DNA of 63,990 nt from positions 186,001 through 249,990 of the forward strand of contig JBDOQK010000048.1 of the NCBI GenBank assembly GCA_040437565.1. The letters are read 5' to 3'. Source of the stretch: Albugo candida (taxonomy: Eukaryota). Shown piece by piece: positions 6,792 to 56,505 of this stretch; position 1 is the first letter of the stretch; each line of letters begins with the position of its first letter. The notes under the pieces were generated by a model that saw only the letters and a program-made list of their open reading frames with translations, made no database searches and was not told the origin of the DNA. Position numbers and translations under genes: made by a program.

Positions 6792-7235
6792 TGTGGCAGT
6801 CGAGGGGATGACAGGCTAACTTCTGTTATGTAGGTGCTGAATGATCGCAAAGAACGATCGAACTTTCCTAATGAAAGCGCATGCTCGAACGGGTTACAAA
6901 TGAATCTCGTTACGGTTACGTGGGTTACGGATGGTCAGCTGTTTTCCCGAGGTAGGGATTCTGAGACGATCAGACTAGGATGTATNNNNNNNNNNNNNNN
7001 NNNNNNNNNNNNNNNNNNNNNNNNNNNNNNNNNNNNNNNNNNNNNNNNNNNNNNNNNNNNNNNNNNNNNNNNNNNNNNNNNNNNNAAAATGAAAGTGTAT
7101 AAAAGATCCAGTTTAATAGCGTCTGTGAGGACATGAAATTATACAACTTGACGGCGCTAAGGGCAATCAAGTTGATCACTACGAATCTAAGTGTGCATGC
7201 AGCGTCTTCTATGCGTGATAATGAATCGTGCGATG

Positions 7236-18467: not shown

Positions 18468-20755
18468 GAATCAAGTTTCCAAAGACTTTGGAGCTTATGA
18501 TGTCGTCTGGAGGGAAGGAGAATTAGGACTTAAATTGAAGCCTGGATCACAGGAAGTCCCCATCATCAGTCGACTTACTGGGAAAGGAACAGCCAGTGGA
18601 CTTCATAATGCAAATGTCGGCGATGAACTCGTCTCTGTGAATGGATCCGTAGTCGAAGGTGAGGCCTATCAGGACACATTACGAATGCTCAAACATTCTC
18701 AAAAACCGGCCATTTTACGATTTCGACCTGGAAAAAATCGAAGGGAATCCATGCTCTCAGTCGTATCGGTTCGATCGAATCCAGCGACCGCAACCGAAGT
18801 TGAGAAAGTGAGAACTCGACATGTGCCTATTTACGACACAGGTCGAGAGCCGACCGAATCGCATATAGTAAAGCCTCCTCCGATCCGGAAGAAGAAACGA
18901 AGGATTCCACTGCAAGTGGCGAAAGAATTAGTAGCTGCAGCGCAAGATGTTGATATCAATCAAGCTGTTTTCGCAGGATTCTTGGTCGGACAGGTACAAG
19001 ACGGCACGCGTGAAGCACATATTCTCCGTGTCGAAGCGAAAAAAATGATTTTGGCCGAAGCAGAAGCACGTCGAAATGGAATTCCAGCCAAGTACGCGCT
19101 CACCCGAGCGGAACGACAAGCAAAAGTGCTGCAGGACGCATTGGATAAAATAAAAAATCAAGCGAAAAAGTATGAGGAAATCTTGAAGGCACAAGAGCGT
19201 GAGAAGATTCTTGCGTCCGCGATGCAAGATAAATCGGAAGAACTCATTGGAAAACAAAACAGTGTCATTGCTGAACTATCACATGTGATCTCTAGGTACA
19301 AACGCGATTCCTACAGCGAGATGGAAATTAACACGATACCGAGTGAAGAAGACCCGCAATTTGTCCGTCAAAGTCTCATTGAAGGGCTTCAAGAGGTAAT
19401 GAATATCCCCGTTGTCGTTCCCCAATCCAAATACTGCGCCGAATGTGGTGCAACTGAGATGGAAACCAAGCTTGATCTCGATGAAGATGGTCAATTTTAC
19501 TGCACCGATTGCTGGGCAAAGTATATGTCTCGGCCTATGGATGCAGTGCACGAGGAATTGTCGATCAAAAGCGTACCCGGTGCCATCTCCGAGTCTGAAA
19601 TCGTCGATGAAGAAGGAGGTGACAGCGTGGATAGTGCAAAAGTTGGCGTACCGCCTTATAATATGAAAGAGCGATTAGAGAAAAAACAAATGGAAGAAGC
19701 AAATGCGCGTATTGAGGCCGAACAAAAGCTATTGGAAATCAAACAATTAAGACAATCTGGCTCACTGACAAAGCTCATGGAACGAGGAGAAGATGTGGAT
19801 TCAGAAGAAAAGGCCCGACGCGATCTTCTCGGTTTAGAAGAACTCGCAAATGCTCTCCGGGAAGAAGAAAATCGAGCGCGAATGGACGGGAATGAAGTTT
19901 TGGCCGATAAATTGAACGCTCAGCGTACTCACATTCTCACTGGCACACCGTCTACCTCGCCATCAAGAGAGAAACAGGCGAATGCTTTATTGTCGGATGA
20001 ATTTCAAGTCACTCACAATGCCCCACGAGAACCTCAAATTCTTGAGGAATCTCAAGAGTGTCGGGAATTTGAGGAGTCTGAGGAGCTTCAAGAGGAAGAG
20101 ATAAAGCAAGAGAGAACGACAAATGGGACGAACGGGTCGTCTGATTCGGAAGGGGATGATCGATTTAGTGAGGGAGATGATGATATGGTTCGTGATTTAC
20201 GACAGAATAATGTGGCATTGGCTCGACAGCTGGAAGAAGCGCATANNNNNNNNNNNNNNNNNNNNNNNNNNNNNNNNNNNNNNNNNNNNNNNNNNNNNNN
20301 NNNNNNNNNNNNNNNNNNNNNNNNNNNNNNNNNNNNNNNNNNNNNCTCAAGAGTGTCGGGAATTTGAGGAGTCTGAGGAGCTTCAAGAGGAAGAGATAAA
20401 GCAAGAGAGAACGACAAATGGGACGAACGGGTCGTCTGATTCGGAAGGGGATGATCGATTTAGTGAGGGAGATGATGATATGGTTCGTGATTTACGACAG
20501 AATAATGTGGCATTGGCTCGACAGCTGGAAGAAGCGCATACTATGGTCGAACGTGCGCGAATGTCGATTTTGATGACTGGGGACGATACAGCTGAAGACG
20601 ATTCGTATGAGCTATCAAACGAGCAGATTCAATTGTTCAAAAAACTGACAAGTCAAGCGGATGAACGCATGTCGATGGTAGATCGATTGCATCCACCTGA
20701 TTCCTCAGACTCAGACTCAGATGAACAATCTGAGGCTGAAGGTGTTTGGATTTAG
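16955..20755 (+). CDS. Three-PDZ protein with coiled coils and a C4 zinc finger; about 895 aa after collapsing gap duplicates
   Basis: Three W(G/T/R)EG(P/E)LG-initiated PDZ repeats, heptad-rich segments, CAEC...YCTDCW and an acidic tail. Removing the 818- and 295-nt gap+duplicate blocks gives a 2688-nt in-frame CDS. Possible 5'UTR intron at about 16852-16916. Confidence 0.85.
20051..20540. repeat. 195-bp duplicate flanking gap 20246-20345
   Basis: 20051-20245 matches 20346-20540. Confidence 0.9.
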
Positions 20756-21056
20756 TGGCAAAGAGAAACAGCGGGCATAGCGCGCTGTTACCATATTATC
20801 GCAGAGAGTTTAGTATACGTTTTATACGCGGCAAATTGTCAAGAAAAGAGATGATGCAGTCTGTACACATGTTAGCAATGCTCTGTATCNNNNNNNNNNN
20901 NNNNNNNNNNNNNNNNNNNNNNNNNNNNNNNNNNNNNNNNNNNNNNNNNNNNNNNNNNNNNNNNNNNNNNNNNNNNNNNNNNNNNNNNNCAGACCTGAGA
21001 AGATCAGTCAGTATCAGACGCTTCTTTTAGCCAATCGTAAATCACCAACCACCAAT

Positions 21057-32677: not shown

Positions 32678-35600
32678 ATGGGCGACAACGATACTCTCAC
32701 ACAATTGAGACATGTTCAACGCGCACATATTTCTGCTAAAATCTCCTGCAATCCATTTCCATCAGTTCGAACGCACACCGCAGAAAAACAACGCGCGCAT
32801 TCACAAAGCACATTCGAGACGCGCCGTTCTCAGCGCAATAAACTCGCTATGTCATCCCCACTCTGCAATTCTGTTGTCGACACTTTGAGCGCAAGAATCC
32901 AACATCCACGCATATCGACACTTTGTGCATGCATTTCGATGCAGCAGGAAGAAATACAAACGTTGAGACAGAATTTGAGAGAAACGCGATTCGAGCTGCT
33001 ACGAAGCGAAATAGAATATCAGGAGTTGTTTCAAGAGCGTAAGCTGATTCAAATCGAGACAGACGCACTCAATACCGACGTACAACGCTTAACGATGGAG
33101 CTCGGTCAGCGAGGTGAGCAAGTACGAAAGCTGTTAGAAAAGAGGAACCAATATAAAGCAAAGTATAAGCATTCGGAGCGGGAGAAACAAGTATCTGAGC
33201 GAAAAATACACGAAATTCGCGCTGAAAGCGATCAATTACTACAGCAAGTACAAAAAGCTCGTGACGCGCGAGACCGCATGCAACATCTTTACATTCAGCT
33301 TAAAGACGCTGCAACTTCTTCACTATCCGCACAGTTGTCATCGCAAGTCGCAATTGAGCCCGTATCGGAAATCTCTCTTGTAGAGTGGAAACGAATTTAT
33401 CGGCGTCGTATCCATAAAGTTGCGGTGAGCACACTTTTGGGCATGCGGACGCTCCGGAAGTCTTTGTTTTGTATTCGGGCTCCTGCATTCGAGCTTCGAG
33501 AAGAAATGCTGAGGTTCACAGCTGCGTTACACGGTCCATTAATGAGTCTTGTGAAGCACTCACAAAAGGCTGAGAGTGCGTGTGCCAAAGCTTTATTGTT
33601 GGACAGTTCTTTACAAAGCTCACAACTCGCACGCTGTCAATTACAGGAAGAATTGTGGAGGTCACGGAACAACGTCTCACTTGTGTGCCAATTGTATTAT
33701 CCGTATGAAAATACAGAGGAAAACCCAGGCAAGAAAGTCGTTTTTCTGGAGGAAAACACGCACGACGGTCTTTTGGATGTGTCGATCGATGAGGCAAATC
33801 GACAAGTGGTCCTACGGGATCACAGTCGATCTCAAAAGCGGGAAAAATGCTCGACACTGGAAATTCGGCTTGACTGTATCGAGTCGGATGGACCGGGTAT
33901 TCAAGACGTTGAGAGTTTCTGTCCCTTGTTGGAAAGTGTGTTGGATGGGTACAACGGCCTTTGTCTCTATATTGACACACTCGCATCCACCGGATCATTT
34001 GAAGACGGTCTGAAAGTCTTAAATGCACTTTACGATAAAAGTGCACGCAAGTCTTCTCAGGGCGCTTTGCGTCATTTTAAGCTGAAAATGAGCTTTGCTG
34101 CTGTTTACGGTGACAATGTTTGCGACTTGTTGACGTCGAATCTGAGCGTTCTTCCAGTGACAACTGAGTACGAACCGCTGCTTACTTTTGTGGAGAGAGA
34201 TTTCGATGAGGCTAGTGATCTGATGATGAAAGGAGTGGCCAGGCTGAACACTGAAAGTGGACACAGTATGCGATCAGCGCATCGAGTCCTTACAGTGAAC
34301 GTGATATTTGAAAAAGGGTCGACTGCGTACACCACAAAACTTCAAATTCTGCAATCGACTGGAAAGCAGATTCCTGAAATTGGAGCTCTTCTACAGCTTT
34401 TAGAAGATGCTCGTACCAGCGAGGAGATCGAGACACATCAAAATCGGGCTCTCCTTTCACTTCTGAAAGATACCACGCGATCGAACGATAAGCTCCTTTT
34501 GGTGTTGAACGTACCCGCTACCTCCACTCAGCGCTCGCTTCCAATCGATTCGGACACATTCCGCATGTTTCAGGCAATACAGGGTATTCGTGTAATAAAT
34601 CGACAGCAGATACCGCCCATATTCGAAGCTCATCCACCAGGGGCACCACATACGCTCCCCAAATCCGAAAGCTTAAACGACACACACGATGAAAAACCCG
34701 GTAGAATTCGACCACAATCTCCACAATATTCCGTGTATGCAAAACAGCTAACAGAGCGCCTGAACGTCAAAGCCTCAGCTCAAATGAAACCCTTATCGAA
34801 AGAAAATAGCGAGACGAAAATGAGTGAAATTCCGAGAATTCCGCCCAAATTGCTGCTTGATTCCTCAATAAAGAGAATTGCATCGCGAGCACCGTCTCCA
34901 CTCAACAAACATGCAGACAGATGTCTTTCCGCTTCCAAAATTCGCGTTCCTCAGGGAGCAGCAGCTCGAATGGATGCTGTCAAGGTGATAGAGCCAAAAC
35001 AAAGGGTACAAGAAAGATTGGGCGGCGTCTTATTAAGCACAAAACAGGCACAAGCGTATGAGAAGCAAATTGTCGAAAAAAACAAACTTTTGGCTTCTGA
35101 TTCCTTTCGCACACTTTCCAGTCGTCCAACTGTTCCACAAATCGGAATTAATCGAATTCGAACACCGACATCTAACGCGAAAAACGCTNNNNNNNNNNNN
35201 NNNNNNNNNNNNNNNNNNNNNNNNNNNNNNNNNNNNNNNNNNNNNNNNNNNNNNNNNNNNNNNNNNNNNNNNNNNNNNNNNNNNNNNNAACCCGGTAGAA
35301 TTCGACCACAATCTCCACAATATTCCGTGTATGCAAAACAGCTAACAGAGCGCCTGAACGTCAAAGCCTCAGCTCAAATGAAACCCTTATCGAAAGAAAA
35401 TAGCGAGACGAAAATGAGTGAAATTCCGAGAATTCCGCCCAAATTGCTGCTTGATTCCTCAATAAAGAGAATTGCATCGCGAGCACCGTCTCCACTCAAC
35501 AAACATGCAGACAGATGTCTTTCCGCTTCCAAAATTCGCGTTCCTCAGGGAGCAGCAGCTCGAATGGATGCTGTCAAGGTGATAGAGCCAAAACAAAGGG

Positions 35601-36866: not shown

Positions 36867-38672
36867 CTATCCAACCAATACGAGTCCAAAAGTCAATCCG
36901 AACGCAAGCATCCAAATAGGAGACAAATCGGTCGCTCCATTGCGCTTGGATCTCGTCGTTGGGACGCTCAACACGTCAGTGGGATATTGAGATGCATCAA
37001 AAGAGCGTAGAGCCGGTGTAATCGTTTCTTCTTCACTCAATGCCGCTTTTGCTTTGGCCAAAATTGGGAATGTAAAGTTGCCAGTGTCACACTTTTCTTC
37101 GGATTTGCACGGCTGACATATCTGCACGTAACCGTTCCGTTTGCACCCATTACCGCTTCCGCACTGCTTCACGTTATAATAACACGGCGGATTTCTCGCA
37201 GTGAGCTCGTCGAGCGTCGGCAGAGGTCGGAAATGCGCAATCACATTCGATGGAATTTGCNNNNNNNNNNNNNNNNNNNNNNNNNNNNNNNNNNNNNNNN
37301 NNNNNNNNNNNNNNNNNNNNNNNNNNNNNNNNNNNNNNNNNNNNNNNNNNNNNNNNNNNNACTTTTCTTCGGATTTGCACGGCTGACATATCTGCACGTA
37401 ACCGTTCCGTTTGCACCCATTACCGCTTCCGCACTGCTTCACGTTATAATAACACGGCGGATTTCTCGCAGTGAGCTCGTCGAGCGTCGGCAGAGGTCGG
37501 AAATGCGCAATCACATTCGATGGAATTTGCAGTGAGCTTTTCGATCGATAGATTTCCGTATACGTCTCAATGACTTTTTGGACACGTTTCGCGTTTGCGG
37601 CTTCACTGGTGGCATTCCTCCAAAACGATAAACCTTGTTCGAACGTGCCGGTTTTATTATCCGCAGCGAATTCGACGTGACTTTCGCTTGCATTACACCA
37701 GTCACTAAAGGTTGTAAACGGTTTTCCCGTACGTTCGTTGAGAATACTTGTGATTCCAACAACATCATCGATCGGCACCCAGCCTAGAATCGAGTATGCA
37801 AACGTACAATCTACGCCATTTGGTGCGACTCCAAGCTCACAAAGTCCAGGTCGACTCGCTTTGCGACAATCTTCTGTTTTCCCGTTCTGATTTGATTTTG
37901 TTGAACAGCTGTTTGGGAAGGAAAACATGAATGCACCAGGATACGGAGCACGCGTGTCGGTGATCGTATTCGCACCAACAAATGGACCCAGATTCGGCTG
38001 CCCATTCTCGCCACTGAATTGGTAACATTCGACGGGAAGTTTGCCCGAGTCGTCTAATGGCTCACACTGACCGTCTTTCATGGGAACCAAAGGACCATAC
38101 TCGTTCACTTTCCACGACTCTGCGAATTGGGAAATGGTCTCGTTAGTTTGCACCATTTCAATGCTGTAAAAGACGAGATTTTTCGCTCCATATTTGCGCT
38201 CACACCGTTTCGACGGAGGACGCTGATGTGAATTGATACATTCAGCCTGCACGAATCGCAAGGCCCCTTCGATGGAAAACGTGTTGACAGTGTCGAGTCC
38301 GGCTTGATACGCTTTGGCCACGTCGTTCACATTCAGTCGGGTCGATGAAACGAAGCGATCATTCATCAAAACGGGATGCTCATTCTCCACACGACTGTGA
38401 ACAAATCGCACTTTCTTCATCTGATACGCATCTCCGGTCGGTTTGACCACATTTCCATCAAGCGGATCGGGAAAGTAGCCGTTTATATCGAGCGCACTTG
38501 ACTTGATCGAAGAGTTTGGTAGCTTCTCACTCAGTGTTCCAGAATACAAGCTGCTTGTGGATGAGATCATCGTATTCAGAATTTGACCAGGAACGCAATC
38601 CAAGCAGCAGATAAGTACCATCGATACGCTTTTAAGCATTCGCTTCGTATTGATTTGAGCTGAAGACGCCAT
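36867..38672 (-). CDS. Cys-rich secreted, probably GPI- or membrane-anchored protein of unknown function (about 511 aa collapsed); paralog of 1..1129
   Basis: N-terminal hydrophobic stretch, many Cys, and a C-terminal small-residue site plus hydrophobic tail (NGATDLSPIWMLAFGLTFGLVLVG). Colinear identity blocks with the 1..1129 protein. Confidence 0.85.
   Translation of the reverse strand: MASSAQINTKRMLKSVSMVLICCLDCVPGQILNTMISSTSSLYSGTLSEKLPNSSIKSSALDINGYFPDPLDGNVVKPTGDAYQMKKVRFVHSRVENEHPVLMNDRFVSSTRLNVNDVAKAYQAGLDTVNTFSIEGALRFVQAECINSHQRPPSKRCERKYGAKNLVFYSIEMVQTNETISQFAESWKVNEYGPLVPMKDGQCEPLDDSGKLPVECYQFSGENGQPNLGPFVGANTITDTRAPYPGAFMFSFPNSCSTKSNQNGKTEDCRKASRPGLCELGVAPNGVDCTFAYSILGWVPIDDVVGITSILNERTGKPFTTFSDWCNASESHVEFAADNKTGTFEQGLSFWRNATSEAANAKRVQKVIETYTEIYRSKSSLQIPSNVIAHFRPLPTLDELTARNPPCYYNVKQCGSGNGCKRNGYVQICQPCKSEEKXXXXXXXXXXXXXXXXXXXXXXXXXXXXXXXXXXQIPSNVIAHFRPLPTLDELTARNPPCYYNVKQCGSGNGCKRNGYVQICQPCKSEEKCDTGNFTFPILAKAKAALSEEETITPALRSFDASQYPTDVLSVPTTRSKRNGATDLSPIWMLAFGLTFGLVLVG
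37091..37530. repeat. 170-bp duplicate flanking gap 37261-37360
   Basis: 37091-37260 matches 37361-37530. Confidence 0.9.
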
Positions 38673-38875
38673 ATTTTATAATGAGCATCCTCAACATGAA
38701 AGTCCACGGCCACATTCTATAGAATCCCAAAGAGTGGGACTTTGACACAAAATTGAATCTTTAAATCGCTGCGTCATACTCCCGGCATCCAATCCCAAGC
38801 TCTACACATTTATATCTGGCTATCTTGGACCGGATATTCCCACTCTTCCGGTTGTGACACGTGCAAAGTCCTGTG

Positions 38876-41800
38876 TTACCTGACAACGCGAGTATTGAAA
38901 ACCCATTCGCGCATATTTTTGCTTCGATAGTGAGGATACGCTTCCAGAATCTTCTCATAGTTATCGAGCGTGAGACAGAAAACACTGCAAGTATGAAGGG
39001 CGATACATGTAGCTGTTCTCGGAGTTCCAAAGATGAGAGAACGCTCTCCAAAGTACCCAAATGATCCGATGACGCGTTGAGCTTCCGTCGTTTTCACCTG
39101 CACTTGTCTTGCTGTGTTTATTTCGCCCGAGTTCTTTGCTGGAGGCGCATTGACAGCTGGACTGATCTCTGTCGTTTTTTCAGCAGCATTTCGACTGCTT
39201 TCCTCACGCTGTTGCGTCATGGCCACCATATCGATTGTGGGTCCCTGAATCCAAGCTTTTGACTTGGAAAGACGTGCTTGATCCTGTAGTGTCTTGGCTA
39301 TTGAGTAAAAGTTGGGGGCTGCAAGAATGGATTTCTCGAGCATTTTGGTCGCTTTCTGATGATCGCTGTCTTCGGCCAGCGCTGCTGTCAACTCTGGCGT
39401 GACTTTGACGATATTCCCTTGCTTCTCAGCTTCTTGTGCTTCGCGTGACGCAGCTGGCACAGTTGACACTCGGACAATTCTTACGGATACCAGACCGCTC
39501 TCAATGATGTACAGACTTCTGCCCAAGTCTCCGTGCTGAATGATGACGTCATTGGTGACGTAGATCTCGTTCCGCATCGCTGTGACGATGGATTCAGCAA
39601 AAGAATACTCACAAGTGTCAAAAAGTCGAACATTTCGAATGAGATTCCCGTGGACATAGAGAGCAATTCGTCGCTTCACTGAAGCTGTAAGTCCTCGCAG
39701 CATCTCTTCCTCATTCATCCCTTTCGTTTCATGCCAAAGAAGCGAGAAATACGCCTGCATTTGCTTCCAGCTTTGACTTGGAAATTCATGGAAAATCATG
39801 TAATGATTCGCCTGCGCTACCCGCTGCTCAAATTGAGCTCTGCGGCCTACTTCCATTTCAAATATCTTGAAATAAACACCCGAAAGCATACTGAAGACCC
39901 CGATCGACAGGAAAATCACGACAAGTGTCACGATATTTTCAAAATAGTTCATGGGTAAAATGTCGCCGTAGCAAACGGTTGTGATGGCTCCGATGCTGAA
40001 ATGCACCGAGCGCGAATATTTAGATAAGATTGGAAAGTCGTACAGCTCGTCCAGGTTCTTGAGACCGTGAAATGACAGCATTCCCGGGGCCGTAAGCCAG
40101 GACGCCATGTTCTGATGCTTATAGTAACTCCAGTAAGATGAGCTGTAAAACACACACGCAATCCAATGCGTTCCAATGATGAAATCAAGCATCAATTGCC
40201 CGAGATAAAAGTACGTCGGTGATAATCTGGCCACTTTACGTTCATACAGCACATAGTATTTGATTTTCTCGTGCAATTGATGCACTTCCAAGCCACGTAA
40301 CACCTTTGTAACACGGAATGTCGAAAGAGAGTACAGGAAATGGTCAATGAAAAATGAAGACGTCAGATGTACACGGAACAGGAAGCACGCAAAAGTCGGG
40401 ACCAATTCGAATGGAAGGATTGCAATCAAATCGCGGACATAAGACCCGTGTTCGTAATAATTCCGAGTGATTTCTGTGCGATCTGTCACGCGTTCACCTT
40501 CACGCAAAAACGTGAAATAATTGCGACAGAGAATGAAATTCATAACACTGACAACGTCGATCACTGCGAACTCGATCGCAAACCACATTAGAAATTGAGC
40601 TCGGTGATCACTACTGTCCAAACGATCTTGAAGAAAACTCGCACGAAAAGGGATCGCGAATATGCAATAATAGTCAACAAGCAGCATGACGATGTCCCAT
40701 CCGTGTCGAAATTTAGGTGCATTCAGAAACGAGGCAAATGTTCGGGTCGGTGGAACAGCCCAAATCAAGTACGGATTCACTCCCGAGTCCTTGCTGGACC
40801 CTAATAAGCCTGCGGCCTGTGGGATTCGAGAGGTATGAAGGGATTGTCTGCGTCCCTGTGAAAGCGCTGGTATGACCGATGCAGCACTCTTCCTAGACAT
40901 TGTGCGCTGGATTGTGGATTTGTAAGACTCAATTTGACGCTTGGAGGCGTATTCATTCGCACACGACCATTTGTTCTCAATCTGCTTTACTATTCGTGAG
41001 AGATAGACTTCGATTTGGTCCATGTTGAGCAAATTCTGCTTCCGTGCTTGTTGAACGTCTCCAAACGAATGTCTGCGTTTCAAACGAGGCTTTGACTCAA
41101 CTTCCACAATATCAAAGTCACATCGAGCTTTGTTATCGAAACGATACTGTCCCTCGTGATGATTATTCAGTTGTTTACTGATATGATGCCACAACGTATC
41201 AATTAATCGAAGAGCCCAAACTCGCTTCAGGTGGCGACGCCATCGAACGACTACATCACTAGAAAATCGCACTTTCACCTTCATTTTTCGACACTTTCGC
41301 GTACCACCGGATGCTTGCAGTCTACGGGTCAGATTCGAATTTTGCTTTATTCCACTAACTATCGACTTTAACGTTTTCGGTGCATCCAAAGCCGGGCCCT
41401 GCATCAGCCGTCTTTCAGATAATGGAAGCGAGGGCGATTCCCTAGTGGACGCTTGACTTTTTTCATAAAGGTCTTTGGACGAGCAAACAAGCCCAAGAAT
41501 CTCTGCTGCTTCGACTTTAAATGTGTCGGGCATCTGATGCACTTTGTGAGTACTGAGACTTACTTTCTTTTGTAGCTTCTCACGCTTTGAAGTAGATCTC
41601 CCGCCATCATTTTGTGATCCCTTCTCTGGGTAAGAGCTTGCCAATTTACTCACAAACACATCGATGGATGAGGAATGAGCTTTGATGCTTCTACCGCTTC
41701 GTGGCTCAATATCAGCCCTTGTCGATTTCACAGACGTCGGAGTATCCGCAGTTTGAGGCTGAATGGAGACGTAATTTTGCTGCTCTAAAGAATTCAATTT

Positions 41801-44800
41801 GTCATGTGTACCTTCAAAGCCACAATACGTAAGGGAATCGAGTGCTTGCAAATTGATTCCTGTGCCTCCATCAAAGAACCAATCGTCCGATACGGATACG
41901 GTGGATCCTTCAGCTCTGGAGGCGAAATTCTTCATAATGTTCAAATATGACAGAGCTACTCCATGATACTTTTTCTTCAGCCTTGTAACGATTTTATTCT
42001 CCAGCTGCATGCGCTGAGCTGGAGGCCATAAACGCTTCCAATTATTCTGATTCAGAACTAATAACTGCGAACTATGAGCAGCTCGCAGGGATGCTAGACG
42101 AACGGAGTTAGGCAGGAAGAAAGAGAACTCGCCAAACATATCCCCGGGACTGAGTGCCGCAAAAATCAAGCGAGATCTTGGCGCAAAAATCTCACCACAG
42201 CCATCCTTCAATATGTATACATTTCTTCCTGCACAAGTCGCGTCCACAATTACATCACCTTGGAGGTAAATTTCGAGTGTCAAAACTGAGGCGACGGCCT
42301 CGACTTGGGCATTGGTGAGCATATCAAACTCTGGTAAGGCTCGAACGAAATCCCCATACAGCTCTTCAAAGAGCTGAATATGCAGCGATGGAGGCAGTAA
42401 GTCGAAAACTTCATGTGGAATTAATTGAAGATAGCATTTCGACTTGTACTCGAGACTGGCCATCGCATGTCGACGCAACGCTGAGGGAAGGTTTCGACGT
42501 TTGGCATATTGCTCAAAACTCTCGACACGCTCATGCTGCTCTTTCGAAGCTTTGTCCAGAGTTATGATCAAAGTGCTAATTCGACCGATAACTTGCCCGA
42601 TAAAGATCCATCCCAAAATGCATATGAAAATAGAGAACACCGTTTCTAAAAAATTTCGAGCCACAATGTCACCAAAGCAATCGACTGTGAACTATTCAGA
42701 GCAGACGAATAAGAGAGAGCTTGTGGAGAAGTCAAGACATCACGTACCGTTGACAAGCACCAATACATTGCTCGTAGATAATGTATCGAAATCGAATCTG
42801 GGTATTCCAAAAGAATCGAATCCACATTCACCCAGCTCTGGTCCGCGATACCGTGTTTCAGCTGAAGTACACCGAGCATGTAATATAAACTTGCGACGTA
42901 ATGAGCCGTGGATAGAAAAATGATGAAAAATTTGAATAAATCAAAAAGACTTGACGCCATTGTGCTTCCATGCATATACTCCTCCTGAATCTTTTTTTGG
43001 ACGTTGTTGACAAAGTCGCTGAGTTGGGGACTTCGCAATAATCTCGGGAGACGAGCTACAGTCGCCAAATAATAGTTGTTTCCGACATAATAGATCGGCA
43101 GCATACTCCAGCAGTCGAGTGTAAACCATCCTTTTTTCCTGTATCGCTGTCGTATCAAAACGGGATCGAGAATTTTCTCTCGATATTCAGTATAGCCAAA
43201 GCGTTTGAGCTTCCAGTAAATGTCCAGGTACAAACAGAAATCGCATGAATAATCGATAATTGTGAGTTTGAGCATTGTAGAAGATGATGGTTGTGGCAAG
43301 AATGCGAGTCGGAACACAATTTGATAAAAGTTGTACACGACAATCGCTGTAATAACGCGATGCCAATAGACCACAAAAGTGCTCTTTGGGTCGAAAATAA
43401 CTGACCTGCTGGTGCCCACATTCGTCCCTACATTCGAAGGCCGAAGCTTTGGCGTCACATTTCGTAAAATATGGTTCAGACTCGTTTGTATCCAGGCTGT
43501 AAACGATAAAGATATGACTCGTGACTTGGACGCTAAAAACGAGCTTCGAGCATTTTGACTCATTCCGCATTGCCTTGTGATTTTCGGATACTTTATCAAA
43601 TTCTGCCCAATCTTTTTCAAAATCTCTTTTTCTTCCGCCACGTACCCATTGATTGCATAGTAGACGTCAGCAAAAACACTTGGGTATTTTTGTACAAGGT
43701 TTAGAAAATCTTGTCGCTGGATAACTGTAATCTGAACTCCAGATACTGCTCGCGCGCTGAATTGATATAAATGTCTCTGTGACAAGATACTCTCTTCACC
43801 GAAACAATCTCCACGTTTCAGAAAAGTGATGGGAACAGAGAAGCGATCAAAATCCGCTCTTTGATCGAAACTTGCGCGGGGAGTTGCAAAAATATGTCGA
43901 TTCGACTTGTGGCCAATTTTTAAAGCTTTAGGGCCTTTGGTGAAATGGGTGCTTGCCAATGTCACCGCATTACGTTTGTGTCCGCTTGTTGTGTGATTGT
44001 TCTCACTTTTGCGTTGGAAATAGCCTCGGATACCGCTAGCTGGATATCGCGTGCTCGATGAAAGAGCATGAGATGACAATGCGCCCAAATTTGCCAAAAG
44101 TTCCACTTCACCGGTCTGAACGATAAACATGGCTGACGCCATATGCTCTGCACGCATGATAACAACATTTCGAAGAAAAATCTGTGTCTTTGCTACTTGA
44201 GCTAATTCTTGGAGCACAATCCCCTCCATTCCATACAACGTGTCACAAGCGAGTGATCGGAAGGAATGAGAATGTTTTAAATCATCTGCGTAGATGGAAG
44301 CACAAACACGTTTTCTCTGTGAAGGCGGAAAATGTTCTTCCATCTCGTCTTCATCAAGCGCGCTACCATTAAGCTTCCACATTGTCGCATAATACTGGCG
44401 GATAATCGCTTTGGTAGAGCTAGATACTTGCGTCATTGTTAAAAGTGTAAGGTTCTGTCGCTCCAAGCGTTCGCGGCGAACAGCTTCGAGAATGTTGACT
44501 TGAGACAAAGCGCTTGTGATAATAGAGCCCATCAAATAACATACGATGGCGCCCATGAAAATCCAAATGCTTCCAACAATTGTTTCCTCGGTCGAAAAAG
44601 ACACGATATCGCCAAAGCCGACAGTGGATATCAATACTATGCTCCAGTAATACGAGCGCGTGAATGGAGAATCAATTTTATATGTGCTCTGATCATACAG
44701 ATACCACGAACAGTTTCCATGTACGCTTGCATCTCCAAGACAACTATACGCGGATGAGACTTGGACATTCTCATCGCGATGGTAGCTGAACTTGTCAGAA

Positions 44801-47587
44801 GCCATGTAGAATAGACTTCCCGCTAACATTGTCATGGCGAGACAGAAGATCGTCGCGTTGATCAGAAATTGAAGTGCGGTCGAAATCCCGGAATCCAACA
44901 TGAGCTTCCGAATCTTATATTTAAGATGACGGACCCGGATCAGCTTCAGCAAACGGACAAATCGAAGGGAATTCACAACATTCACCGGCAATTTTTCTTT
45001 GTCTAGAACGTCCCAAATCAGCGGTAGCGGAATGTTAGCCGCCACATCGGCCAAGTAGCCTTCCGTCTCAAGATAGTGCTCGAAAATGTTTCTGTGCTCG
45101 ATAATCAACCCAGCCTCGCTAGAAATCTGTGTAAAGTCGTGAATACTGTGAACCAATATATTGTTATTTTGTCTCGTAGGCGCATGTGTCGACCGAACAA
45201 AACAACGAGAGCGAAAGTAGAGATCTAAAAGGAAGAAACCTTCGACCGCAACGTTCCAATAAAATTCAAATACCCTGACGTAATGTACAAACGCGCTTCG
45301 TAATGATGATCTTGATTCATTCAATAAGCCAAATTCTCGTTCAAATGCAATGTAATAAGGCACCTGTAGTACTATATAGCACATAAGAACGCATTCCGCC
45401 ACAAGCCAATTCTTTTGAAACTTGGAATGAGGAAGTCTCCATGTAGCTATACCACTCAAAGCGGATCCAAAATCCTTGAACATTTTACCCTGTCTTCCAC
45501 GCATTGCGTTAGATTCTTTCAGCGGTACTCCGGCTGAAGCTTTTCTGACTGCAGATGCTTTGTCATTTCGCAACATTCCGGATCGTTCTGGTTCAATAGA
45601 GTTTGGAACTGCATTTTTGTCTTGCAGTGCGGTGGCATAAGATACGCGTGGGAAATGCTCATAGAGAGTTTGTTTGAATGCAAGGCGAGGCAAGAGCCAA
45701 ACTTCACAAAAAGAGTCAGCCACCAGATAATGAGACGATTTTGACTTTTGAGCCAGTGCATGCTCTGCATACGTGCTGCCTGCAATCAAACGGCCACAAT
45801 CATCCATATTTTCATCTTGCACACGAATTTCACCCGACGACACTATGAGCATTTCTTCCGGTTCGCCATACTTGAGAATCGACTGGTTCGGTACAAAGCA
45901 GTCCCATCGTAAGCCTGCCAAAACAGAGCGCAAAAAAGCTCCATGACGGTTTTTGAAAAGAGTTATCTATAAGAATAATCATCACATTTGTATACAGATC
46001 CAAAAACAAGCGTGTGATACCTTTTCCAAATGCTTATATTTTACGAAATTCGCGCACCTCATTCGATATTGCTCCGGAAGATTCGATAATATAAGCTCTT
46101 CCTCGACTCCGTGACGTGTTCGCTGCATGTAACGAAAATACGTATTAAGATCAGCTGTCAATTGATTTGAGATTTTCCGCGACGACGTAAACTGTTGAGA
46201 ACAATCTAAGCCGAAAAATTTCAGGAATCAACGCAATTCAAACCTTCATCATTTGTGCGAGTCGAGTTGTGATGTTGATATGCATATTGGCGTCAATGTA
46301 GCTAAAGTGGAAAGAGCATGCTGTCCCGATTGCAGTTGCCCATAAACCCGCTACAAACTGTATAAATATTCGGTAGTTTGTTTCCAGCATTGTCGTTGGA
46401 ATCAGGTCTCCTTGTCCTAACGTTGTGACTGTCTTGCATCCCCAATACATGGATCGAAGATACTTTCGCCAAAAAGATCCTTTTTCCAGATTATCTCGCA
46501 GCACCCAGGACCCCGGGTACGGGTCATTAGAGCACCAGGTAAAGTTCAGACCACATTCAATATGTGCGATGAGCATGTAACCTGATCCAGCCAAATGTGC
46601 AAGATATATTCCAAGCACAGTGAGATAGACCAACATTGCGGTGGTGCTGAAAGACAATAGCTGAACAAGTGTGGAAGTCCCGCTTCTACTCAGGATGACA
46701 CGATTAAACCTTCTAGGGAGGTGGTATGCTGCTTGAATGAATCGAATCAAACCCATGATATGCATCAGATTGAGATCTGAAAGAAACACGGCTTCCCAAG
46801 GAAGTATATCGGCCAATATGACAAAAAGGGCCAATTTTGATTGCGTACTTGACTCTCTCTCTACAAAAGTCGACTGCTGTAAGGAATTGGATCCATAAAC
46901 AAAGCTGTGTTGGTTGATAGACGTAATCGCATCTTTACTTTCGCCTGTTGAGTATTCACTTGATGCACTGCTAGTGGTATCAAATAGCTCACTTGAAATC
47001 GGATGCAATTTGAACCTTGCCAGCAAGCCATGTACTTTTTTAAAAAAGAATTTGATCTCTCTGCGCCACGCAATCGCTCGAATCACACAACCCATTGTGT
47101 CGGACAATAAGAATACTTTGTTCGCAAAAGTCAAAGATGCTGTTGTTTCTTCAAACAAAGGATCGAAAAAAAAACCAACTCGGAATGGAACTACTACAAG
47201 TATGTAGATTGTATCGACGAAACTCCATAACGCGAAGAATGGCTCCTTCCTTCGTTTTATGTACATATGAGCTTTGTTTTCGAATTTGATGAAAATCGAT
47301 TTCGAAATTTGCAAAAGCGGTGCGCTTATACTTGGACATGAATAATTGAAGATAGTTCTCACCCTGTGCGCACCAAGAGAGCGATCTTCAGAGTGTTGAT
47401 GTCCATTTCGAGCTTCTACCGGTGCAATGATCCCAGCATCCGAGGATCTATGCTTTATTCGAGCTTTCGACATCATCCAACTACCTTTTCCTCCAACTAA
47501 TGTAGGCAGCGCTGGTGTCACCTGTTTTTTTCGATTTAGGTAAGATTGATCCAATATTGACGAAGGCGGACCCTTTCGTGCAGACAT
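38876..47587 (-). CDS. Four-repeat cyclic-nucleotide-binding-domain cation channel (4 x [6TM + C-linker + CNBD]), 2849 aa
   Basis: Exons 47587-46244, 46191-46021, 45966-42748 and 42691-38876 are joined by phase-0 GT-AG introns of 52, 54 and 56 nt, fusing three ORF-track entries. Four pore loops (TTLGQGD, STVGFGD, TVDCFGD, TTVCYGD), four C-linkers and four CNBDs. Confidence 0.9.
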
Positions 47588-48462: not shown

Positions 48463-48933
48463 TCATATTTCGACTCTGTTGATCAAGACTTCATAATCGT
48501 CGACAGTGGTGGGTGATTCAATTTCCGCTTTCTGCTGAATCTCTTCCTCATACGTCTCAGAACCCATTGATTTCAGCTTATTCAATGCGACATGATTCTC
48601 AATCGCGTCATACCACAAGTCTTGGTTAGTGTCGGTCCCACAGTCGACGTACAAGTCGCGTCCATTCTCCAGCCTTATGCATAGACCGAAATTCCGTCCG
48701 CCCCACGTAATGACAGAAACAACCGCGGAAGATTTGATGGCCTGACTTTCGGGTTTGTTGTCATGTCTCCATGACAAAACGCCCTGATCCAATATCATGT
48801 AACGTTTTTTCCAGGTCGTAAAGATCTCACCGCGTTTTCGAAGGTATCCGCTCAATTTCGGCGCTTTTTCCTCAAGACGCTTTATTTTTGCCGAAAATGT
48901 TTCAGATCGTAGCCGCAAAACTGTAGCATTCAT
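48463..48933 (-). CDS. Small PH-domain protein (ORF extends to 49089; start uncertain)
   Basis: LSGYLRKRGEIFTTWKKRYMIL...GRDLYVDCGTDTNQDLWYDAI. Confidence 0.85.
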   Translation of the reverse strand: MNATVLRLRSETFSAKIKRLEEKAPKLSGYLRKRGEIFTTWKKRYMILDQGVLSWRHDNKPESQAIKSSAVVSVITWGGRNFGLCIRLENGRDLYVDCGTDTNQDLWYDAIENHVALNKLKSMGSETYEEEIQQKAEIESPTTVDDYEVLINRVEI

Positions 48934-51537
48934 ATGTAATCGATTACTTGGTCGCTTCTGATTTTGTGGGAATTGAGCTATGATACAAGCAGATGTTACA
49001 TACAAATTGGATGAGTTGTCACGCAGGGATGTTACAACGCATATGTCCCTTGTGATTGGACGATATACGACGAGTTTTGGTGAGTTCATTGAAGTCGATG
49101 CATCGTTATGACTCTACGTGCCCACCTCCTTGACGTGGCAGACTACAAACAGTTGATGGTACACCTCATCTTTTGGGTCATGCAATTGTCAATGAAGGAT
49201 TTTCCTGCCTTACTGGGAATTGACACGTCTGCATTTTGATACTCTAATTCGTATCCATTTGACTCCGTCTATACATGTAGAGAAAGATGCAGAGTGATTA
49301 TTTTACTGCCTAAGGAAGAATGCATAACATAAGTGCGTTGAATTCTGAATCAAGACGTGATGATGTTGATCGGAAGGAATATCACTAAGAAGAGACGAGT
49401 CAGGGAAGAAGCTTCAATATATGCTGTAATTGCTCAAGCTGTGCGGGTCATAACACTGCCGCTGTATGTGCTAAACACACATAAGTCATCGATGCAGCTA
49501 CACCTATAGGTTCCAATCTAATCTGAACGGATAGTCTACACTTCCATTTCGTCTAGCTGAAGCGAGTCATTACCGGCACCGATGCATATCAAAGATCCTC
49601 ATTTATAAGCCTGCTTAGTGGCGATATGCACAAGATGTATTTTCACATAGACGTTCTAGACTGCAAAAAGTCACTCATCGAAACTTTCTACATTTCTCAG
49701 GATATGTGCTCACACGACGTTTGACGATACAAAAATGAGTGAAGCCGCGTGGCAAATTCATATCTTTATACAGGGATTTGGTAACTATTAAGTGAACTTC
49801 AGCTATCTTTTTGGCTCAGAACGAGGGAGTTTTCGGACACGTCGTATGAGAACACATCGGACAAAGCGTGAGCACAAAACAATTCACGAAGGAAAACGCT
49901 CTCGTCAAAATAAATTCGTCCAGCCGCACTCTGATCAAATCTTGGCAACTTCTAGTTTCCACACTCTGTTTATGAGTGCTCATAGTACCGCACACGTAGA
50001 AGCTCAAATAAGCAGGAGTAAATGTCTCCAACAACCTGACATCACACAATGGATCACAGAGGACGGAGGAATATGACTCTCCCTTTAATGCATCAAATAC
50101 GGGAGAAAAAAAGCAGGTAGCAAAGAATCAAAAGTGTACAAAGCTGACCAGTAGGAGTAAGCATCTTATCCGGAATCTCGAACGCCACTATGGATATGAT
50201 CAATCCGGGGAATTGGCTTTCCGGTCACAGCGACACACCATCGGGTTGCTTCTGTCGATGTTACTTCGACGCATAACCGGCGTAGAAAACTTCTCATTGA
50301 ACGAGTTACCCGGCTTTTAAACTTCGTACGTATTGAATCTGCATTTAGTAGTGAGATCCGAGCCGGTATGGCTGTCTTACCAGGTGACGAACGTGAGCGA
50401 AACGCATTCGAGAGTCACATTCGTAAAGTACGCCCTGTTTCGGGTGGTGATAGTAGAGCGCTGACGCTGCTCAAAGTGAACTTTGCAGTTAATGTGGAGA
50501 CATATCCAAGCATCCGACATGTATCGATGCAGAGCACCAACTATTGGAAACTGCGCGCTTCACTAGAGTTATGCGTTTCATGCGAAATGTGACCAACCCC
50601 ATTTCTGCTCCCACCATATCAAAGCAACATGCCGATGAAAATCGGCAAAATGTCGACATGGTGGCATCACATTGATACCAATTAGTGGAATGCTCCAAAG
50701 TCGAGTGTAACGCATCAATTAATTTGTATCTCATACAAATTGTAACTTGGTATGTTTCTCAGCTTATAGGTGTCATATGTCGCTATGAATACACCTCAGA
50801 ACGAATTGATTGAGCATGAGATGCCGTCGTTGAACAGGCCATGATTTTTGCCACCAATTATTTCCTAAACAACGTTCTCACACGAAGAGAAAAATGAGAA
50901 AAGCACCATAGAGATGATCTTCAAGGAATGAATTGATCTAATCACCATTCAGCAACTAACTAAATGTGATCACAAGGTATCTGACCGACCCATCCTGGTG
51001 AAAGGATCGTGGCTACTAAATAGGCGACACATTTGTTCACAACTTGGTAACACAAGAACGACTTTTACAGATTGTCCTTGACTCCTCAGCCTTCAAAATC
51101 TCGCCACAGGATGCCAAGCTGAGCTTCTAGAGGAGAGTCGATATGAATGGAGTCCTCAGCACCATAAAAACTGGGTGCTAAATCTTGTCGAGTGGATCGC
51201 CCTGCTTGTCACCTCTAGAAGAAGTCTCATGGGTGAGAGCGATATAATCAATCACCAGCGGAATGCTCGTTTTCTGTCCAGAACTATGTCGGCCTAATGA
51301 TCGAACTTTCACCGTTATATATGTGAAATCAATCTGCTGAATACTGCGCTATTTCAAAGTCGAGAAGAGGTGCACGCAAAATTCAATGAAATAGTAAAAT
51401 GTGGTGATTGAGCTCTACTTAATCAACGTCAAGCTGATGTGCCGTAACTGCTTCGATAAGTGGTCGAGTAAAGAGCCGGCCCCCGAACTTGGGTCAAAAT
51501 TCCTGAAAGCGGACTATGATGGCGACACAAATCAAGC

Positions 51538-53379: not shown

Positions 53380-53713
53380 TTGACCGAATCACGGAGTTGC
53401 AGACGACCCTCTTTCAGATTTGAGATCATCTTGTACAAAGTTGATGATAGTACCGACTTAGATATCTCGCACATTATGTGTAGTCGTATCCTTAAANNNN
53501 NNNNNNNNNNNNNNNNNNNNNNNNNNNNNNNNNNNNNNNNNNNNNNNNNNNNNNNNNNNNNNNNNNNNNNNNNNNNNNNNNNNNNNNNNNNNNNNNTTGA
53601 CCGAATCACGGAGTTGCAGACGACCCTCTTTCAGATTTGAGATCATCTTGTACAAAGTTGATGATAGTACCGACTTAGATATCTCGCACATTATGTGTAG
53701 TCGTATCCTTAAA
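53380..53713. repeat. 117-bp duplicate flanking gap 53497-53596
   Basis: 53380-53496 matches 53597-53713. Confidence 0.9.
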
Positions 53714-54316: not shown

Positions 54317-54548
54317 CCAAAAACTACATTTGTACAATTACAGATGTCTTGACATCAGCTGGGTCAATGATGATTACCTTGTNNNNNNNNNNNNNNNNNN
54401 NNNNNNNNNNNNNNNNNNNNNNNNNNNNNNNNNNNNNNNNNNNNNNNNNNNNNNNNNNNNNNNNNNNNNNNNNNNNNNNNNNCCAAAAACTACATTTGTA
54501 CAATTACAGATGTCTTGACATCAGCTGGGTCAATGATGATTACCTTGT
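54317..54548. repeat. 66-bp duplicate flanking gap 54383-54482
   Basis: 54317-54382 matches 54483-54548. Confidence 0.9.
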
Positions 54549-56505
54549 AACCATCATATCAGCATACTTGGCAAGATGCAAAACGTGAGGATGGAAGTGA
54601 GCTGGATACTAGTAGAAACTAAGCTACAATGGATAGCTTGACCATAGCTGAATGCTGAATAGCAAAGCATGCATCCAGATATTCTCTACCTGGATAGGAG
54701 ATCCCATCTCAAGAATTCGTAATCTACGCTCGTGATCAAGCCTATTCGAGCATTTTACGGAACTTTAGGAATCGCATACTCATTGGTATGACCCAGGGCG
54801 GTGTTTTCACCACTTTTGATCATCATCGACAGAGCATTGCACCACGACCCGATTAGATGCTTGTAGTATACTACTTTCGAGACGCTGGACCAACCTCAAG
54901 TGGTCAATCTGAAACGAGATCATGTCATTACTAGAGCTTTAATTCGAACGACCAAAAATTCCGTCGCATTCAGACGTACAAAAGCCTCCTTCAAACAAGA
55001 GACACTGACTTTAATAAGTTATTTGATACCCCCGTTCATTCTTCTGTTGTGAGTCATATAGGAGTACAGCCTTCGTCGATCTGCTCATCTTATGACTGGC
55101 ATTTACTTTTCTCTCTCACATCGATCCTTTCATTCACCTTTGAAGCAGCATAAACACTTGAGTCAGCAGCATTTCCCGAGATTATCTCTTCACGTACTTT
55201 ATTGCCATAGCCCTTCATATTGTCCATGTTTGTCAACCAGTGTATGAGGAGGAAGAAACGTATCAATTATCCTTAGACGGATCTGACACAATAATGATTA
55301 ACGTGCGAGTAGTATGATTTCGGAACGAATGAGGTCAGCCGTCTTTACACAGGTTTCACTTTTCTGCAGCGAAAAGCTTGAAAAAAGGATGCCGCTTTTT
55401 TGCGCGCAGAAAGCATTTCATTCTATCTGAACGCTCAAATGCGTAATACACAATCTATACTTCCAGCAGCACTAAATGGTAGCAGACAAGATCTTTTCCT
55501 AGGCTACTGTTGTTATCTATCTTGATCGCGTGTAGTATTTCTTAGCTACAGCTATGACAAAGGATGGGTTTTGTGGTTATCGCTGGATCATTGGCGCACA
55601 ACGCTGCGCTGCCGTGCACGTAGCTTTTAGCGACCTAGTCGCTGTGTCGAAGTAATAACTTATGGAAAGTGTTTTAGACTCTGCATTATCTACCTCGACA
55701 ATGCCATGTTCCTTCACGTAAAATCTTCAGCAAGCTAGATTCTGATTCCGTCGTGAATTGCATTTGATTCTATCTTTGTCTTTAACTTTTCGAAAGCAAT
55801 CTCCTCAAATACATTGAAAATATGTAAAGACACGTTATGTGCAATACTTCTCCATTTGAACTGATGATGCCAACCAATTCAGCAAAATTGACAGCTGCCA
55901 TTCGGCTCCATCACAGCTTTCAAGTAGAATCAAACAATTATTAAATGCCTGACATGAGGATTTCTTGATTTCTGGCGACAATGCAATGTGGAAGTGCTTT
56001 GGTTTCGTCCCAACTTGATAACGGTGACAGCAGTGCGTTCCCAACTGTATGTAAATCGGACTAATGAACGGCAACCCGATCATACAATGTATGGTGCAGG
56101 GATTCACCGAAATGAAGCGAATTCAGGAAGCGCTTCTCCGGGCTGCGATGATAATGGACGGCATGTTCAGTAGAAATTTAATGTCAATCAGGAGAGGCCG
56201 GCGATAAAATAAGGGTGAACGACGAGTTATGAGCGCGAAGGTCTAAATATGTAAATATGGTGTTGGATGCACCACATGAAGACGAGCGCACTTAGACGGC
56301 TCAACGGTGTCACAAGAATCGACTGCCGNNNNNNNNNNNNNNNNNNNNNNNNNNNNNNNNNNNNNNNNNNNNNNNNNNNNNNNNNNNNNNNNNNNNNNNN
56401 NNNNNNNNNNNNNNNNNNNNNNNNNNNNAAGAGTTTTGCGGACTAAGGTAGTCTTATAAGTCCTATAAAGCATTTCATCATCCGAAGGAGTTTATAGACG
56501 AACGA

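Follow-up and report, generated by a model that had tools for sequence, protein, structure and literature searches.

A four-repeat cyclic-nucleotide-binding-domain channel with an asymmetric selectivity filter in Albugo candida and other oomycetes

We analysed a stretch of 63,990 nucleotides from the oomycete Albugo candida (assembly GCA_040437565.1, contig JBDOQK010000048.1, positions 186,001 to 249,990; hereafter the window), which carries on its minus strand a gene for an ion channel made of four fused repeats (R1 to R4). Each repeat consists of a six-transmembrane (6TM) domain with a pore loop (P-loop), a C-linker and one cyclic-nucleotide-binding domain (CNBD). The four selectivity filters differ from each other, and comparison with related proteins indicates that this asymmetry is conserved across oomycetes and is not private decay. 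That the gene has the anatomy and the conservation of a four-repeat CNBD channel we consider practically certain. Its most likely reading, which we hold with moderate confidence and by analogy with better known channels, is that of a cation pore with altered selectivity, no longer selective for K+.

Gene structure, repeats and pore loops

The gene model started from three large open reading frames (ORFs; 47587..46238, 45933..42646 and 42664..38876), bridged by short GT..AG introns that were read off the sequence. Once spliced by script, the single minus-strand gene (47587..38876) consists of four exons and forms one open frame of 2849 codons plus a stop (Table 1). All three introns were found exactly joined in contigs of the public run X1. 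For intron 3, the 56 nt are absent from a contig in which 42691 directly adjoins 42748, its shorter side measuring 255 nt. The joints of introns 1 and 2 are both present in one further X1 contig, and X3 has both of them with short sides (20 and 27 nt). A contig of X5 is unspliced across 41954..43066, as expected of DNA, and no further splice joint within the gene was reported in the public-run contigs. The runs were only guessed to be RNA, so that the usable evidence is the existence of spliced contigs; in the form of these RNA-like contigs, the channel gene is expressed. One spliced X1 contig of 11345 nt spans the 3′ two-thirds of the gene (38800-44364) at a depth of 116, the 5′ part having about 6, and extends about 5.8 kb beyond 38800 into neighbouring genes. 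It is probably a merged contig over closely packed genes, and for that reason its depth was not taken as an expression level.

Pfam searches with the exon products returned Ion_trans, Ion_trans_2 and cNMP_binding (E-values in Table 1, with a second Ion_trans_2 match at 4.8e-06). The cNMP_binding matches comprise two stretches on the exon 3 product and three on the exon 4 product. Four pore matches and four CNBD regions lie within one spliced frame, and two features of the CNBD-channel superfamily are present, namely a 6TM domain with a P-loop, and a C-linker and CNBD after S6. Solved structures were searched with the R2 and R4 modules of this gene and with the R3 module of the Albugo laibachii orthologue. 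Among the chains listed (all 15 for R2, the best 60 for R3 and R4), the best matches were CNGA3, SthK, CNGA1, hERG, HCN and KAT/AKT, with E-values of 2e-12 to 5e-27; all were CNBD channels, and no Nav, Cav or NALCN chain was found among them. The alignments span S1-S6 and the C-linker and run into the CNBD, from which we concluded that four CNBD-channel subunits are fused in one chain. The likeness to CNGA1-3, SthK, HCN, KCNH/hERG and plant KAT/AKT, which provide the best sequence matches per repeat, extends over the whole module. These single-repeat channels are built from four separate subunits, whereas the repeats of the oomycete channel are fused and individually specialised.

The four pore segments were aligned without gaps: in each, the filter stands 12 residues past the YW of the pore helix (replaced by HF in R4), and S6 then begins in the same way. 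All four loops share the spacing T-x-x-x-x-G-D, with an invariant GD. In this gap-free frame, R3 reads T-V-D-C-F-G-D against a consensus of T-T-V-G-Y-G-D. The R3 loop is split by intron 3 (...YWCLST / FTVDCFGD), so that the reading of its filter depends on that splice, which is borne out by the X1 contig. The original prediction, made from the letters of the window, had placed four filter motifs in this region, with Cys in place of the first Gly in two repeats and an Asp in one filter. All four were found where it had put them, on the minus strand; the Cys belong to R3 and R4, the Asp to R3. It had further stated that no repeat keeps TxGYGD. This is literally true for A. candida, but overstated: R2, with GFGD in A. 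candida and Phytophthora and GYGD in Lagenidium, is on sequence a standard K+ loop. GYG and GFG are both called canonical in the available part of the paper on CNGK (PMC4749565), the cyclic-nucleotide-gated K+ channel of sperm. The K+ signature T-x-G-[YF]-G is found in one of the four loops, R2, in this gene as in its orthologues.

An uneven S4 charge, strong in R2 and weak in R1, had also been predicted, and was recovered. R2 has nine Lys or Arg in a 26-residue window, in a regular pattern. R3 (RxxRxxR) and R4 (RxxKxxR) have three in register, and R1 is weakly charged and varies among orthologues.

Table 1. Features of the channel gene and assembly gaps in the window (positions within the window).
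Feature	Position	Strand	Evidence or remark
Whole gene, four tandem 6TM + C-linker + CNBD repeats	38876..47587	minus	ORFs, splice, orthologue match
Exon 1: N-terminus, then S1-S6 and pore of repeat 1	46244..47587	minus	ORF; start agrees with the N-terminus of the A. laibachii orthologue
Intron 1, 52 nt, GT..AG	46192..46243	minus	46191-46244 joint in contigs X1 (side 171) and X3 (side 27)
Exon 2, 57 codons: repeat 1 C-linker	46021..46191	minus	splice, contigs
Intron 2, 54 nt, GT..AG	45967..46020	minus	45966-46021 joint in contigs X1 (side 171) and X3 (side 20)
Exon 3, 1073 codons: CNBD1, repeat 2, CNBD2, repeat 3 through pore helix ...YWCLST	42748..45966	minus	cNMP_binding 4.1e-20, Ion_trans 1e-17
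Intron 3, 56 nt, GTACGT..AATAG, within the R3 P-loop just 5′ of the filter	42692..42747	minus	X1 contig joint
Exon 4, 1271 codons + stop: R3 filter and S6, CNBD3, repeat 4, CNBD4	38876..42691	minus	cNMP_binding 1.7e-22, Ion_trans_2 1.3e-06
R1 filter TTLGQGD (Gln for Tyr)	46426..46406	minus	
R2 filter STVGFGD (ordinary K+ type)	44628..44608	minus	
R3 filter TVDCFGD (Cys for first Gly, Asp for Val, Val for Thr)	42688..42668	minus	
R4 filter TTVCYGD (Cys for first Gly)	39982..39962	minus	
R2 S4 voltage-sensor helix LRFVRLLKLIRVRHLK, strongly charged	44920..44967	minus	
CNBD3 phosphate-binding cassette FGEFSFFLPNSVRLAS, Arg kept, then Leu	42089..42136	minus	
CNBD4 phosphate-binding cassette FGERSLIFGTPRTAT, canonical, Arg kept	39008..39052	minus	
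Gaps (first six)	6986-7085, 8909-9008, 10492-10591, 14606-14705, 17650-17749, 20246-20345		100 N each
Gaps (last six)	20890-20989, 35189-35288, 37261-37360, 53497-53596, 54383-54482, 56329-56428		100 N each

Conservation of the filters and history of the family

A word-index search among longer proteins gave 11 matches out of 5143 candidates: proteins from A. laibachii Nc14, Lagenidium giganteum and six Phytophthora species, and three distant proteins. Identity to the A. laibachii protein (P0004) is 81% over full length and 86% over exon 3. An exhaustive HMMER search found 2033 proteins at E-values up to 0.001, 150 of which were listed. Five proteins then contributed their four loops each to a pore profile, and the filter columns were read in every protein fetched. 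The immediate clade comprises 27 distinct proteins including that of the window (26 database proteins), from Albugo, Lagenidium, Phytophthora and [Pythium], already present in databases under generic names. Its tally list holds 29 identifiers, two of which are exon products of the window itself, and five truncated or mis-modelled loops were excluded.

TLGQGD was found in R1 of all 24 distinct clade proteins with a complete loop, and G[FY]GD in R2 of 25 out of 25. In R3, Cys replaces the first filter Gly in all 22 proteins (VDCFGD 15, VVCFGD 4, and IDCFGD, LVCNGD and VVCMGD once each). The corresponding position of R4 is Cys in 16, Ser in 5 and Thr in 1 of 22 proteins, and Gly in none. The Asp of R3 is confined to the orthologue group. 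Among the orthologues, filters are identical or near-identical in the four that could be read fully, and in an alignment of eight, invariant columns number 24 of 36 within the filters and 284 of 1476 (19%) in the rest of the aligned part. Given the Pfam domains and this conservation of the filter columns, the motifs are more than chance. The private decay of the filters that would have undone the original prediction fails, since the odd residues are conserved in orthologues across Albugo, Lagenidium and Phytophthora. The predicted pseudo-tetramer with an asymmetric filter likewise stands: four repeats in one frame, with loops that differ in a pattern conserved in the clade.

It could still be asked whether a pseudogene, wrong splicing of the model or a misassembly lies behind the odd filters. 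The draft sequence of the window has 12 gaps, each of exactly 100 N, and R1 alone stayed under the Pfam cut-offs (19 and 18.1 bits). However, none of the gaps falls inside the channel gene, its frame is open over all 2849 codons, the three introns are spliced in contigs, and the same residues are found in the 26 database proteins, from several genera. An origin by decay or artefact is already contradicted by this evidence, and we consider its probability negligible.

Intron 3, with its position inside the R3 P-loop just 5′ of the filter, seems, from the sequences of relatives, to be conserved in the family. For nine of these (P0015, P0016, P0019, P0020, P0022, P0024, P0025, P0034 and P0059), ORF-type fragments break exactly at the point where exon 3 ends: they read ...YW[CS][LM][SE]TV or ...YWCLSAV, followed by unrelated sequence.

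The clade is made of two groups, the orthologue group (R3 VDCFGD, R4 TVCYGD) and a paralogue group (VVCFGD, TVSYGD), to which two genes of Lagenidium and one of [Pythium] brassicae belong and in which the R4 residue is Ser, or Thr in one member. The possibly redox-sensitive filter put forward in the original prediction finds no support in this comparison: with Ser or Thr in place of the R4 Cys, the Cys pair is not a requirement of the family, and the idea of a redox switch or disulphide was dropped. In L. giganteum (P0005, P0026 and P0173; longest contig 148863 in all rows), the orthologue and one paralogue have consecutive locus tags and the third four-repeat gene has a tag 16-17 numbers lower; these genes would be a local paralogue cluster.

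A third family, present in Phytophthora (family C), has the loops GYDD in R1, GYGD in R2, LVGSRE in R3 and FYGD in R4. Three Phytophthora proteins (P0180-P0182, of which P0181 is from P. infestans T30-4, 1458 aa) have two pores only, GYDD and AVGYGD, matching the first half of family C. Some of the oomycete channels entered in databases, and perhaps described in print, as 'two-repeat' may be truncated models of four-repeat genes. Other four-repeat CNBD relatives have conserved odd loops of their own: TLVVVVIGD in R3 (a large family), TLTLVGSRE in R3 together with V[FW]YGD in R4 and GY[YD]D in R1, and, in another set, TVAYGD in R2 with VVNYGD in R3.

Two trees of individual repeats were computed, one with FastTree (232 repeat modules from 56 four-repeat and 8 single-repeat proteins) and one with IQ-TREE (86 modules). 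In both, the repeats of families A-D sort by position: one branch has all R2 on the same side (support 89) and another all R3 (87), whereas R4 needs two changes and R1 three. Because the repeats group by position, the trees point to a single ancestral four-repeat gene for families A-D. Per-repeat alignments were also joined end to end for 32 proteins (1310 columns), and the resulting tree, with its root assumed on family B, gave the following nesting. Family B has GFGD, GYGD, VVVIGD and GYGD in R1 to R4. In family D, R3 reads VVCFGD and the other loops keep both glycines (GLGD or GFGD in R1, GYGD in R2 and R4). Protein P0041 comes next, with LVVYGD in R3, and then a group of 22 proteins (support 99), containing the oomycete clade, in which the R4 Gly is also lost. 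The Gln of R1 is confined to clade A (100), and the Asp of R3 to the orthologue group (99). R3 is without its Gly in every family that branches before the polytomy supported at 99, and in three of the four lineages of that polytomy; the readings in families A-D are VVVIGD, VVCFGD, LVVYGD, VVNYGD and V[DV]CFGD. There are two exceptions: LVGSRE of family C keeps the Gly in a changed context, and ALDYRD of P0032 has Asp there. The oomycete channel thus fits a large protist family of four-repeat CNBD channels, both in the kinship of its repeats by position and in an R3 without the first filter Gly. Filter changes that arose stepwise and were retained point to function rather than decay.

The closest known build is that of CNGK, or tetraKCNG, which belongs to the same superfamily, with four 6TM + CNBD repeats in a single chain, and probably shares with the oomycete channel the fact that few of its CNBDs are functional. 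The sea-urchin CNGK reportedly opens on a single cGMP. CNGK is found in marine invertebrates, fish and choanoflagellates. In the available part of the CNGK paper (PMC4749565), all four pores have GYG or GFG, whereas only R2 does in the oomycete channel (GQG in R1, CFG in R3, CYG in R4). An alignment-based homologue search gave eight matches, including a named fish CNGK (P0166); a named CNGK was found in amphioxus as well, and six further proteins group with these two. Every complete loop of this CNGK group is GYG or GFG. All 16 CNGK repeats form one exclusive clade (SH-aLRT 98), beside single-repeat channels and apart from the repeats of families A-D. Forcing the R3 repeats of both families together was 89 log-likelihood units worse in the approximately unbiased (AU) test (p-AU 0.00027, for a group named after tree inspection and with a quick-search model). 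From the separate CNGK clade and the AU rejection, the four-repeat build appears convergent. On this phylogenetic evidence, the oomycete channel is CNGK-like in build, is not a member of CNGK, and its four-repeat fusion arose separately.

The tandem CNBD channels described by Pozdnyakov et al. 2020 (PMC7576140) come from the same organisms and superfamily, and there too each repeat evolves as its own lineage. They have two repeats and TVGYG-like filters, against the four repeats and clade-wide deviations seen here.

Predicted selectivity and gating

On the model of CNGK, Nav and Cav, a single central pore would be expected, lined by the four P-loops. Of these loops, R2 alone is of the standard K+ type; R1 keeps both glycines, with Gln for Tyr, and R3 and R4 have Cys at the first filter Gly, R3 adding an Asp. 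The position of the first filter Gly requires a backbone geometry accessible to glycine only, according to work on KcsA. A K+-type carbonyl stack would then be unable to form four-fold. The pore would be wider and weakly K+-selective, passing Na+ and K+ and possibly Ca2+, and its opening would depolarise the cell, unlike that of the hyperpolarising CNGK.

The altered selectivity, with possible entry of Na+ or Ca2+, that the original prediction had put forward is plausible, and two systems illustrate what such a change can do. In GIRK2, residue G154 (human) or G156 (mouse) is what we take to be the first Gly of GYG. The weaver mutation (G156S) and its human counterparts G154S and G154C replace this Gly with Ser or Cys, as seen in R3, R4 and the paralogue group. 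The weaver change (G156S in mouse, G154S in human) lowers PK/PNa to about 2, compared to at least 20 in the wild type (PMC9001731), and with G154C the filter is wider, K+ selectivity is lost and Na+ can pass, at 3-8 mV per decade instead of 57 (bioRxiv 10.64898/2026.07.28.741201). These are disease mutations in a homotetramer, whereas the oomycete state is natural and conserved. In plant HKT transporters, a natural pseudo-tetramer, a Gly to Ser change in one of the four loops (SGGG in class I, GGGG in class II) divides class I, which works mostly as Na+ uniporters, from class II, which symports Na+ and K+ (PMC7918770), so that the loss of one filter Gly goes with a shift of selectivity towards Na+. 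Their build is unrelated, with four M-P-M units and neither voltage sensor nor CNBD.

Several points weigh against a non-selective, ligand-gated pore. A wild-type partner rescues the weaver phenotype at some GIRK1/GIRK2 stoichiometries (bioRxiv 10.64898/2026.07.28.741201), and the GIRK2 measurements come from homotetramers with four substituted loops, where the oomycete channel has two of four. According to the available part of Pozdnyakov et al., filter sequence alone is no predictor of selectivity, as Kv TVGYG and HCN CIGYG differ in function (PMC7576140). HMMER aligns R3 to CNGA3 with a shift of two residues (FGD against IGE), which means that the residue equivalence in R3 is not unique. 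Finally, the CNBD4 Arg is followed by Thr in Albugo but by Asn in Lagenidium and Phytophthora, and this variation makes ligand binding uncertain.

The first of these points is also an argument for a channel that would still select, or strongly prefer, K+, and that would act as a CNGK-like, hyperpolarising, cyclic-nucleotide-gated K+ channel. R1 and R2 keep both glycines, and the backbone carbonyls of the R3 and R4 Cys could still line enough sites. The common spacing with its GD in all four loops and the canonical R2 loop are in keeping with such a pore, and Pozdnyakov et al. consider that near-consensus motifs imply at least K+ permeability (PMC7576140). Yet two adjacent repeats are without the Gly that GIRK2 cannot exchange for Cys or Ser without losing its selectivity, and a single such change, in one loop out of four, is the main sequence divide between the HKT classes. 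R3 moreover alters the Thr, Val and Tyr positions, and R4 lacks the pore-helix Trp. We regard a K+-selective channel as a serious but rather unlikely alternative.

Still less probable, in our opinion, is a central pore that does not conduct at all, with ions flowing through a voltage sensor or the protein serving as cyclic-nucleotide sensor or scaffold. There is a precedent in zebrafish HCNL1, where the pore is non-conducting and protons cross the voltage sensor (PMC7306766), and three of the four loops are non-canonical here. A dead pore is nevertheless hard to square with filter columns that are the most conserved part of the repeats and with the retention of GD and pore helices, and nothing that we examined points to a pathway through the sensor.

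Returning to the non-selective cation pore, its gating by cAMP or cGMP would probably go through CNBD4, and perhaps CNBD3, since CNBD1 and CNBD2 are without the phosphate-binding Arg (CNBD2 has Tyr there in the HMMER alignment to SthK). The Arg of the CNBD4 cassette is kept in the 11 orthologues that match the cassette pattern; two others failed to match it. R2, the sole strongly charged voltage sensor, may add modulation.

The original prediction had also drawn a parallel with Nav and Cav. It holds as an analogy: like Nav, Cav and NALCN, the oomycete channel is a chain of four 6TM repeats with non-equivalent pore loops and unequal voltage sensors. As kinship it does not, since CNBDs are present and the closest solved chains are CNG, SthK, HCN and KCNH; Nav, Cav and NALCN have no CNBDs, have other P-loops and show no close sequence relation to the oomycete channel.

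Surroundings of the gene and place in oomycete biology

When the pore profile was run over all six frames of the window, only the 47587..38876 gene matched, and no second channel gene was found there. A 208-aa ORF lies just upstream of it on the minus strand (48463-49089). The neighbouring ORF 36867..38672 contains the gap at 37261-37360, which accounts for a repeated stretch of 56 residues around a run of X. Around the gaps starting at 20246, 37261, 53497 and 54383, identical sequences of 66-195 nt stand directly on either side, and for those at 8909 and 14606 one flank is repeated within about 400 nt. These duplicated flanks look like unmerged assembly overlap.

In the literature, Pozdnyakov et al. 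2020 (PMC7576140) describe two-repeat tandem CNBD channels in oomycetes and, in the available part of the paper, restrict the four-repeat CNGK to animals and choanoflagellates, and report strong filter deviations as rare and found in single channels rather than in clades. A review of oomycete Ca2+ signalling mentions, in its available part, only many CNG/HCN homologues. We found no description of four-repeat CNBD channels in oomycetes in the literature, the supplementary tables of Pozdnyakov et al. 2020 being outside what was covered. Among the papers found, that of Pozdnyakov et al. was the only one to deal with CNGK and oomycete channels together. The printed picture of oomycetes, with tandem CNBD channels of two repeats and near-consensus filters, is corrected by the present family.

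A broader proposal, which we put forward as tentative, would be that oomycetes and other protists hold an undescribed family of four-repeat CNBD channels, ancient and made of a single chain, in which a symmetric K+ filter became asymmetric stepwise (R3, R4, R1 and finally the Asp of R3), independently of CNGK and of Nav and Cav, and that the Albugo and Phytophthora member is a cyclic-nucleotide-gated, Na+/Ca2+-permeable channel driving depolarisation or Ca2+ entry in spores and zoospores. If true, a K+ pore would here have become Nav/Cav-like by a second natural route. How the symmetry of K+ pores gave way to the asymmetry of Nav and Cav is a long-standing question with few living intermediates, and in this family nature offers a graded series: related proteins have one, two or three of their loops altered, each state being conserved. 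Because this series exists, the question could be tested by expression and loop swaps.

The likely setting would be spore or zoospore signalling. Taken as a class, and at class level only, the cyclic-nucleotide-gated channel genes of P. infestans have most of their expression in sporangia and zoospores (PMC5322657). Should the proposal be true, the channel would be a target specific to the pathogen, which neither plant nor animal hosts possess. It is a candidate cyclic-nucleotide-gated path of cation entry for oomycete spores, where the genes of cyclic-nucleotide and Ca2+ signalling are strongly induced.

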